In this document: positions 60,353-64,000 of the stretch, in pieces
Layout: the number at the start of each line of letters is the position of its first letter
Numbering within the stretch: position 1 is the stretch's first letter
Source of the DNA: Escherichia phage EP01
Strand: one strand, 5' to 3'
Sequence record: OM135583.1
Length of the DNA stretch: 64,000 nt
Translations under genes and position numbers: made by a program
The notes under the pieces: generated by a model
Databases searched by the model: none
Told to the model about the DNA's origin: nothing
The model's input: the letters and a program-made list of their open reading frames with translations, nothing else

Positions 60353-60630
60353 TTATTCTTTAAATCTAATCAATTTATTCATAGACTTTGAAACTTCTGC
60401 ACGAACCTCATGTAAGTTTTTAAGCTGTTCAAGACGCTGCTCATAGTAAGCAATTTCATCTTCTTCGAGACAGTCCTGTGAATCTTCTTTAAGATAACGC
60501 GCATAGTCCTGGAAAGCGTTACGAATTACTTCCTGGAAATCATCAAGACTTTGAATTTTCTTAGGAGCAACAGATACACGACGAGGGGCAGTATAATACT
60601 CATAACCAAGCCCTGCGCTTAATTGAGCCA
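60353..60630 (-). CDS. hypothetical protein, 92 aa (start trimmed)
   Basis: ATG overlaps stop of upstream ORF (TAATG). Confidence 0.45.
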
Positions 60631-60897
60631 TTAATATTTTTCCTCTGGTTGGAACACAGCACGACAAGCCCACATACTGGCTTCTTTGAGTTTAGTTTTA
60701 GCAATAGTTAACTGATCAAGGCTTTCAGCATAATTCTTCGCGAATTCACAGTCTTCACAATTATCTAGTGCTTCCCAGAATTCATCATATAAAGCATCAA
60801 AGATAAGTCCTAAACGAACTTCAGCATCTTTGATAGCATTCACTTTACCGATTTTCTCTTCAGTATGTGGCTTATAACCCTTAATATCTTCAATCAT
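60631..60897 (-). CDS. hypothetical acidic protein, 88 aa
   Basis: ORF track. Confidence 0.45.
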
Positions 60898-61111
60898 ATT
60901 TTACTTCCTCACCAGTACCCAAATCATATTCAACTAAACGAATAGGTTCATGAATGCCATATCCCTGAACAGAAATTTCTGTCGTAGGATAAATTCCACT
61001 AATATCACCCATGTTCCACGCTTCATTAAATTGCTGTTCGCCTGAATTACTAAACCACTCGGCGAAAGCATTTAGCACATCTTCAGAACCTTCAATAATT
61101 ATCTTTGCCAT
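60890..61111 (-). CDS. hypothetical protein, 73 aa
   Basis: ORF track. Confidence 0.4.
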   Translation of the reverse strand: MAKIIIEGSEDVLNAFAEWFSNSGEQQFNEAWNMGDISGIYPTTEISVQGYGIHEPIRLVEYDLGTGEEVKYD

Positions 61112-61485
61112 TACAAACTCTCAGTAAAGGTACGAGCGATAACGTCGCGCTGCTGTTCCGGAGTCAGAGAGTTAAAGCGAACTGCATAACCGGATACACG
61201 GATGGTCAGCTGCGGATATTTTTCCGGATGCTTAACTGCATCTTCCAGAGTTTCGCGACGCAGAACGTTAACGTTCAGGTGTTGACCACCTTCAATTTTA
61301 ACTGTAGGTTGTGTTTCAATTTCAATTTCACGGGCATGCAAACCATAGAAAATTTCTGGGTCTACAAAAGAGTCCTCTTTAAAAGTTTTAGAGACAATAA
61401 TTCGTGCTTGAATACCATCTTCAAAATAAATAGTACCTTTATGCGTGCCTTCAAGAATTTGATATGCTTTCATATAACCTCTCAA
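61111..61485 (-). CDS. autonomous glycyl-radical cofactor (GrcA/YfiD-like), 124 aa
   Basis: C-terminal [13 protein letters not shown] glycyl-radical motif; 3' half visibly more GC-rich than flanks. Confidence 0.8.
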
Positions 61486-61862
61486 TTAGAAAATAAATTT
61501 ATCCAAGATTGCTCTTTAATTAAAAATGGCTCAGAATCATATGCCATTAAACTTTGGGTGATTAGTCCTTTAAAAGGTCCATCAATAAATTCCATGGCAA
61601 AATATGGAATTTTATTCATTAATCTTGCATTAGGAGCAGTGCACAAAACTCTACATCCTTTGAATACGCCTTTTTGTAATTTGTATTGCTTAGGATAAAA
61701 TTCGCTCAAGACATTGTTATTTGCCAAAATTTCAAAATGATTCACCAATTTATTTTTAATAGTTTTTGGCGAAAAATAAAGATATTCGAAAAGCTGAGTG
61801 TCTGTCATCATTGCATTCCAATTACGAAAAACTGTGGACGAGTAATACCACCAATGCAGCAT
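61482..61862 (-). CDS. hypothetical protein, 126 aa
   Basis: ORF track. Confidence 0.45.
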
Positions 61863-62395
61863 TTACTATTGCAACAGTGGTGCACAGTTTCAATATGAAT
61901 ATCGTAAATTTTATCCATATCAGGAGATTTAACAGGCTCATCGATTATATACAAAATCCGCGAAAGCGATAAACCTCTGAACTTGCTTCCTTTATTACCG
62001 ATAAAGCTACGGACAGAATCAGTAAATAAGCGGAATCGAATATCATCGCTAGAATAACGAGAAAATTCTTTTTTAATGTGGCCCGCAGAAATTTTAGCGT
62101 AAGCTGAAGTATTAGAAAGAACAATAACTGTTCCACCATCATACAGCCAATTAGCAGCAAAGTTAGTCACAGCAGTTGATTTACCAGATTGTCTGCCACC
62201 ATCTAAACGAAGTGTGCAATACTGTTTGAGTAAGTCTTCAAATGGTGGGATATAATCGTTTTTACAAATTTCTTCTACTCTAGCATCAGAATGGTGTGTA
62301 AAAGCATTCATCAGGGATAGATAAGGACCAGTTAAAAATGTTCTCATTTTGTTATCTCTAAATTTGGGCCATTCCGTGGCGCATGAATTGTCCAT
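61808..62395 (-). CDS. P-loop NTPase-like protein, 195 aa (start uncertain, 62395 or 62347)
   Basis: Walker A GRQSGKST and Walker B-like ILYIIDEP. Confidence 0.5.
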   Translation of the reverse strand: MDNSCATEWPKFRDNKMRTFLTGPYLSLMNAFTHHSDARVEEICKNDYIPPFEDLLKQYCTLRLDGGRQSGKSTAVTNFAANWLYDGGTVIVLSNTSAYAKISAGHIKKEFSRYSSDDIRFRLFTDSVRSFIGNKGSKFRGLSLSRILYIIDEPVKSPDMDKIYDIHIETVHHCCNSKCCIGGITRPQFFVIGMQ

Positions 62396-62524: not shown

Positions 62525-63103
62525 TTAATTACCACGGGCTGCATTAGCAACGGCATAAGCGTACTGAACATTAGCGTCCTTAAACGTACCTTTAGAGGTA
62601 TCTATTTCTGCCTTAAAGCCGCCTTTAGCCATAACATCGGCAAATTCTTTACGGAAAGCCATTGCATCAAGACCTTTCCATGATGATTTGTGCTTGGCGA
62701 ATTCAAGACCAGCGTAGTTGACAGCCTTAGCTAATTTATTATCAATGACCCATTTACCGGCTTTAGGCACAAACTTCGGACCTTTTTGTTTAGAGAACAG
62801 TTTTAAATTCCAGCGACGAAGATCACTGTCGGCTTTAACAAAAGCTGCGTCTAAGTTACTAGCAACAACATCTTCAATATGAGCAAATTTAAGTCCGTCA
62901 ACTTCAATATTTAGATCGTTACGCCAGCGAAGTCCTTCCCAAGCGAAAGCTTTAAAGTCAGAAGCTTTTGTGGCTAGATATCGTTCAAGTGGAGCAGTTT
63001 TAGGGTCAAAGCCGTTTCCGCCACGATAAGTCCACTCATCTTTATTAATGCCTTTGGCCTTTACTACAGAAGCTTCAGCAATAAATTCTTGATACGTTTT
63101 CAT
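62525..63103 (-). CDS. ipIII: internal protein III-like, 192 aa, with capsid targeting sequence
   Basis: N-terminal MKTYQEFIAE targeting/protease-site motif; basic protein. Confidence 0.75.
   Translation of the reverse strand: MKTYQEFIAEASVVKAKGINKDEWTYRGGNGFDPKTAPLERYLATKASDFKAFAWEGLRWRNDLNIEVDGLKFAHIEDVVASNLDAAFVKADSDLRRWNLKLFSKQKGPKFVPKAGKWVIDNKLAKAVNYAGLEFAKHKSSWKGLDAMAFRKEFADVMAKGGFKAEIDTSKGTFKDANVQYAYAVANAARGN

Positions 63104-63518: not shown

Positions 63519-64000
<482 letters not shown>

Follow-up and report, generated by a model that had tools for sequence, protein, structure and literature searches.

Here we show that the vs.6 gene of Escherichia phage EP01 contains an interior tract of 175 nt that is identical to the grcA gene of Escherichia coli. 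The analysis covered a 64,000-nt stretch of the phage DNA (sequence record OM135583.1; hereafter the window). The gene itself and its biochemical role are already known. We think it very probable that an old phage gene has had this interior recently overwritten by host grcA through homologous recombination, and that the tract has followed the host gene thereafter. The identity and the boundaries of the tract, the direction of its transfer, its incongruence with the flanking DNA and the existence of a second host-phage pair are all shown by the sequence comparisons.

The tract lies within a minus-strand open reading frame at 61111-61485, which is vs.6 (Y06I of T4). The 124-aa length given for it in an earlier note on this sequence corresponds to a reading that begins at a TTG, which is not the real start. 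Because a GAGG Shine-Dalgarno sequence (61478-61481, minus strand), identified from the sequence, stands four bases before an ATG at 61473, and because the T4 vs.6 CDS is annotated alike, the CDS runs over 61111-61473 on the minus strand and specifies 120 aa followed by TAA, a GrcA/YfiD-type autonomous glycyl radical cofactor orthologous to T4 Y06I. Upstream, the phage-type vs.7 (61482-61862, minus strand, GC about 0.30) ends in a TGA at 61482-61484; downstream, the TAA of vs.6 (61111-61113) overlaps the ATG (61109-61111) of vs.5 (60890-61111, minus strand), which is not homologous to the sequence flanking grcA in E. coli. The order of reading frames in the window, vs.8, vs.7, vs.6, vs.5, vs.4, vs.3 and regB, agrees with the annotated loci of T4, RB69, ime09 and AR1, so that vs.6 still lies, within the regB-vs.8 block, where vs.7 and vs.5 adjoin it; its near-identity to T4 Vs.6 further indicates orthology. 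Over 2 kb the best match is Escherichia phage KIT06 (97.9%), and the window belongs to a T4-type phage of the genus Tequatrovirus. Two further features of the region were seen in passing. On the plus strand a 197-aa TTG reading frame (61105-61698) runs antisense to vs.6 and vs.7 and, in DNA this AT-rich, is most likely spurious. Upstream of vs.8 there is a 192-aa ORF (62525-63103), and KIT06 has the internal head protein IpIII annotated at the matching position; for comparison, T4 carries denV between ipII and vs.8, whereas the window showed no ORF of the size of denV in the interval from vs.8 to the lysozyme gene e (63519-63998).

The product of vs.6 is, like GrcA/YfiD (TIGR04365, IPR011140), a small stand-alone protein with a C-terminal glycyl-radical domain. 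Pfam Gly_radical (PF01228) matches residues 60-101 with 67.2 bits against a cutoff of 22.2, and the RVSGYAV radical-glycine motif is present, at the C-terminal end of the reading frame where the earlier note had placed it. The protein matches E. coli GrcA (YfiD, PDB 6owr) with E = 5e-42, the last 60 aa of the two being identical, and the PFL chains 1cm5 and 1h16 align with it over PflB residues 697-759 (E = 5e-26), collinear over the C-terminal ~60 aa. In contrast, identity to E. coli GrcA falls to about 30% over the N-terminal 60 residues, a part that is 7 residues shorter and shows phage-like codon usage, although homology in the region preceding the identical block is weak but detectable (ARIIVSK versus ARCIVAK). 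It is because this N-terminal half is divergent and phage-type that the protein, at 154.6 bits, does not reach the NCBIfam GrcA equivalog cutoff of 170. The closest relative with a tested function is the T4 homologue, to which the earlier note had also referred: it is identical at 119/120 aa, with P where the window has T54, occupies the same vs.8-vs.7-vs.6-vs.5-vs.4-vs.3-regB position and has an E. coli-like 3' tract too, differing by CGT versus CGC and by GAA versus GAG at the third-from-last codon.

According to the account of Wagner et al. (2001) given in PMC8683613, YfiD and T4 Y06I (Y06I_BPT4) are both activated by PFL activase and restore oxygen-cleaved PFL. Because of the 119/120 identity to the tested T4 protein, and of a C-terminal domain identical to the host's, the protein encoded in the window should, judging by sequence, likewise be activated and rescue oxygen-cleaved PFL. 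In that case the C-terminal glycyl-radical domain of vs.6 would be activated by the host pyruvate formate-lyase activase, and activated vs.6 would then serve as a 'spare part', taking the place of the C-terminus that host PflB has lost to oxygen cleavage. A side observation concerns phage RB55, where a 13-nt deletion (GTTATGCAGTTCG; in the region at about 1123-1475 of its locus) removes the GYAVR radical motif and shifts the frame, and where the record annotates no vs.6 CDS. Either vs.6 appears to be dispensable in the laboratory or the deletion is a sequencing error.

The two halves of the gene differ sharply in composition. When GC was measured in 120-nt windows it was 0.47-0.51 at 61100-61299 versus 0.275-0.30 at 61380-61579. 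GC of the tract, 61121-61295, is 0.497 (z = 3.6), against 0.326 in the 5' part of vs.6 and 0.345 for the window as a whole, and comparison with all 175-nt stretches of the 64 kb shows that it is the only one to reach this value. Between adjacent 175-nt windows, the GC step of 0.171 at vs.6 falls in the top 0.18% of the window. Third codon positions follow the same pattern: GC3 is 0.44 within the tract but drops to 0.17 in the 5' part. The GC-rich 3' half, which the earlier note had described from the letters, is thus borne out by measurement.

At the nucleotide level, the tract (61121-61295, minus strand) is a perfect 175-nt match to nt 200-374 of E. coli K-12 grcA; it encodes the start of the conserved (I)EGGQH... 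block, the RVSGYAV motif and most of the C-terminus to ...RTFT. The alignment to host grcA that had been proposed as a check gave 98.4% identity over 61111-61295 (185 nt) in all 5426 complete E. coli genomes. On the 5' side, identity collapses at AAA ATT, where E. coli has CGC GTT, and gives way to the phage-type 5' half (61296-61473, minus strand), which is AT-rich with a GC of 0.33 and a GC3 of 0.17. On the 3' side, the limit is set by the last 10 nt of the gene (61111-61120, minus strand), which read GAG AGT TTG plus TAA where E. coli has GAA AGC CTG, with phage-type synonymous bases at 61120, 61117 and 61116 in the last three sense codons. This end haplotype varies among phages (GAA AGT TTG in T4, GAG AGT CTG in KIT06 and RB10, GAG AGC TTG in ime09), and homology between host and phage ends at the vs.6 stop codon, with none beyond. 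Host-like composition, near-identity at synonymous sites and sharp edges therefore occur together within a single gene. The earlier note had placed the host-like block at about 61111-61300, which holds for 61121-61295 but not for the phage-type last 10 nt; it had also suggested recent acquisition or gene conversion from the host grcA/pfl region, of which the grcA part stands on the 175-nt perfect match and the pfl part does not. Neither pflB nor tdcE can be accepted as the donor, pflB being only about 80% identical.

Could the 3' half simply have been held constant, after a single ancient acquisition of vs.6, by strong constraint on the protein, on codon usage or on an RNA element? The C-terminal glycyl-radical domain is indeed highly conserved as a protein in all phages and bacteria. 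However, synonymous sites in this block vary freely among bacteria and among other phage lineages. Over the 59 codons of the tract, the window and E. coli K-12 show no codon differences, whereas E. coli differs from Citrobacter, Klebsiella, Enterobacter, Salmonella and Yersinia at 15-27 synonymous codons and unconverted phage genes differ at 23-28 codons. Since bacteria vary to this extent among themselves, purifying constraint at the protein level cannot explain the identity of the tract. An RNA element behind the nucleotide conservation was likewise rejected, there being no Rfam match in 60500-62000. Furthermore, the genes on either side of vs.6 have diverged by 30% in these phages, and Klebsiella phages carry the synonymous variants of Klebsiella. 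We therefore regard long-standing constraint as a very improbable explanation.

The direction of transfer follows from the bacterial gene. E. coli grcA diverges from its relatives concordantly in its 5' half and in the tract, with identities of 0.889 and 0.914, respectively, to Citrobacter and of 0.844 and 0.829 to Salmonella, and E. coli's own copy of the tract has a GC of 0.497, equal to that of the phage tract. Because of this concordance and of the GC value, the tract is native to E. coli and was transferred from host to phage. Transfer from phage to E. coli is rejected on the same grounds, the host gene being equally diverged in both halves. The identity might instead be an artefact of host reads in a chimeric assembly, but more than 600 phage records, sequenced independently of one another and with the T4 record X04567.1 among them, contain the tract. 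We found nothing specific to the window in favour of either an artefact or a reverse transfer, and taken together they are scarcely credible.

Recent replacement by host DNA is also what the wider set of E. coli phages indicates. GenBank records served as the population sample, since no more than about 10 contigs of Tequatrovirus or Mosigvirus in IMG/VR contain the tract. Matches to E. coli grcA at 95-99% identity occur in 604 GenBank phage records, with the left boundary always the same. A comparison of 13 Tequatrovirus and 7 Mosigvirus genomes gave a mean divergence between the two genera of 29% in vs.7, 30% in vs.5 and 33% in vs.4, compared with 10.8% in the vs.6 5' half and 1.3% in the tract. 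The tract is no more diverged between the genera (1.3%) than within them (1.0-1.6%), and its history is incongruent with that of the flanking phage DNA (1.3% versus 29-33%). As a separate observation, the vs.6 5' half (61296-61473; 10.8%) and vs.8 (61866-62350; 14%) are closer between Tequatrovirus and Mosigvirus than vs.7, vs.5 and vs.4 (29-33%), a local mosaic for which the tract that both genera share with the host may have been the seed.

Ten of the 20 phages carry a tract without any difference from one or the other of two E. coli alleles, which differ at one Arg codon (CGC in K-12, CGT in SK1144); the CGT allele was present in five of 11 grcA matches sampled at even steps down the ranking. 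The window carries a perfect copy of the K-12 (CGC) allele, and T4 a 178-nt perfect match to the CGT allele. Each allele is found in Tequatrovirus as well as in Mosigvirus, and next to differing 5' haplotypes. The sole common polymorphism of the phage tract, CGC/CGT, thus has the same site and the same bases as the sole E. coli difference seen here, a match that rests on a single site. In addition, two tract variants, TCA (in L097, RB10 and ChristianSchoenbein) and ATT (in moha and LF82-9), are shared by phages of both Tequatrovirus and Mosigvirus and occur in none of the 5426 E. coli genomes. This led us to reject the view that they are rare E. coli alleles and weakens a purely host-driven model; as they are confined to phages, part of the uniformity of the tract must come from phage-phage exchange or recurrent mutation. 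RB10 and RB55, both of which are listed with E. coli B as host, have different tract alleles, and if they were long propagated on that strain conversion is not fast on a laboratory time scale.

These variants bear on whether exchange with the host still goes on. It is conceivable that there was one host-to-phage transfer in the E. coli T-even phages and one in the Klebsiella phages, each followed by spread from phage to phage only, without continuing exchange with the host. The presence of TCA and ATT in both genera and their absence from 5426 E. coli genomes would fit such a history, as would a left boundary that is identical in every phage examined. However, a coincidence of site and bases like that of CGC/CGT in phages and E. 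coli would be expected roughly 1 time in 500 if the two were independent, half of the phages (10/20) lack any difference from a host allele, and the Klebsiella phage PSE-D1 resembles a mosaic of two alleles of K. pneumoniae. We consider the single-transfer history unlikely, and lean, if only slightly, towards a tract in continuing concerted evolution with the chromosomal grcA of the lineage's current host.

The second host-phage pair is provided by Jiaodavirus, a genus of Klebsiella phages, which were compared with K. pneumoniae grcA DNA obtained via protein look-ups. Here the GC step, from 0.36-0.37 to 0.53-0.55, is larger than in the window and the tract boundaries are the same. Jiaodavirus phages show 4 mismatches to K. 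pneumoniae grcA in 170 nt and exact runs of 104-140 nt. In PSE-D1, which has these 4 mismatches, one K. pneumoniae allele is matched exactly over 104 nt and another over 65 nt, so that it looks like a mosaic of the two; a Jiaodavirus contig from IMG/VR (L119) has a 140-nt exact run to K. pneumoniae grcA. Against E. coli grcA, the Jiaodavirus tract shows 18-23 differing positions (18-21 in PSE-D1 and L119), and its amino-acid allele is that of Klebsiella, LLDAVEHPEKYPQ (LLDAVE), not that of E. coli. The same kind of mosaic has therefore arisen repeatedly, with different hosts.

Other phage lineages supply the unconverted baseline. In most of them, namely T5-like phages, Krischvirus, Slopekvirus and Winklervirus, identity to the closest grcA of any bacterium over the 3' 189 nt of the gene is no more than 70-83%, compared with 95-96%, and to E. 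coli specifically, in Tequatrovirus and Mosigvirus. GrcA-like genes occur in many phage lineages, and their N-terminal halves form a phage-specific group; that of vs.6 has 50-75% identity among T4-like genera and about 30% to host GrcA. The vs.6 gene is thus old in phages and its tract is young.

Several other records deserve mention. Krischvirus phages JSE and Cognac are 97.4% identical in the 5' part of vs.6 and only 74.6% in the 3' 189 nt, and in JSE vs.6 is immediately followed by a homing endonuclease gene. The region concerned lies at 1267-2261 of the JSE locus and at 1267-1683 of the Cognac locus. Here too the 3' half has been replaced, possibly through the endonuclease and from phage to phage rather than from the host. 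Eight IMG/VR contigs from human-associated metagenomes encode phage GrcA homologues in flanks with a GC of 0.29-0.38, carry a C-terminal allele of Pasteurellaceae type (NNPDKYPQ...VITRTFTESL) and have 79-84% nucleotide identity to Pasteurellaceae grcA (Haemophilus parainfluenzae or Aggregatibacter); they may represent older, partly ameliorated host-derived tracts. The record of Pseudomonas phage vB_PSGBLB0006 has a T4-type vs.6 (96.5% over the full gene), and that of Listeria phage LM 4-14-1 (6.3 kb) matches over the 3' half only, at 74%, as T5-like coliphages do; in both cases the host label or the record is probably wrong. Finally, a full-length grcA is found on a plasmid-labelled record, 'plasmid unnamed4' (275 kb) of Klebsiella sp. 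WOUb02, which may be a chromid, a second copy or a misassembly.

How might such a tract be formed? What we propose on the mechanism of recombination, its frequency and whether its outcome is adaptive or a by-product of homology is what we infer from the patterns above. Short stretches of homologous DNA are enough for T4 to recombine efficiently, as marker rescue from plasmids illustrates. Ancestral vs.6 would already have shared short exact runs with host grcA, of up to 17-23 nt, and a gene-conversion patch templated by host grcA could have replaced the interior of the homologous region, its left edge falling at the start of the block coding for EGGQH and its right edge a few bases before the stop codon. 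The patch would have been unable to pass the ends of the homology, which would explain both the fixed left edge and the retention of the last three codons. Once installed, about 175 bp of perfect homology would ease repeated exchange with the host or with co-infecting phages. Through this easier exchange the tract would evolve in concert with the host gene, so that its allele is the one found in the host genus: of E. coli type in Tequatrovirus and Mosigvirus, of K. pneumoniae type in Jiaodavirus.

The closest known parallel is the patchy psbA of cyanophages, where intragenic phage-host and phage-phage recombination has produced patchy GC (PMC3900582). As with vs.6, this is a host-derived metabolic gene in T4-like phages with host-like segments (PMC3900582). 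It differs in that vs.6 has a block perfectly identical to a present-day host allele, with fixed boundaries, and resides in a classical coliphage whose DNA is otherwise unlike that of its host, with a parallel in two host genera. Conversion driven by homing endonucleases in T-even phages resembles the vs.6 case in giving short tracts incongruent with their flanks, but in vs.6 the donor is the bacterial chromosome and no endonuclease gene adjoins vs.6 in the window. A search of one literature library found no paper on the nucleotide identity, the conversion tract or host tracking, and an earlier mention in Wagner 2001 or in the 2003 T4 genome review is possible.

Our work indicates that, in nature, homologous recombination repeatedly carries sequence from the host chromosome into lytic T4-type phages: hundreds of isolates have the tract, and Klebsiella phages have it in the Klebsiella allele. 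To our knowledge, there is hardly any nucleotide sequence that T-even phage DNA has in common with the host chromosome, and it is for this reason that perfect identity to a chromosomal gene over 175-178 nt is unusual. The pair vs.6 and grcA accordingly offers a simple system for measuring the frequency of host-to-phage copying. If concerted evolution does continue, homologous recombination of T-even phages with the host chromosome would have left in the tract a natural record that can be dated. The tract would also mark the host genus that a phage had recently used, and its perfect homology would foster exchange between phage genera that are otherwise diverged. It also raises the question of whether a host-matched glycyl-radical domain is selected, for recognition by host PflA and PflB, or is a neutral consequence of homology.
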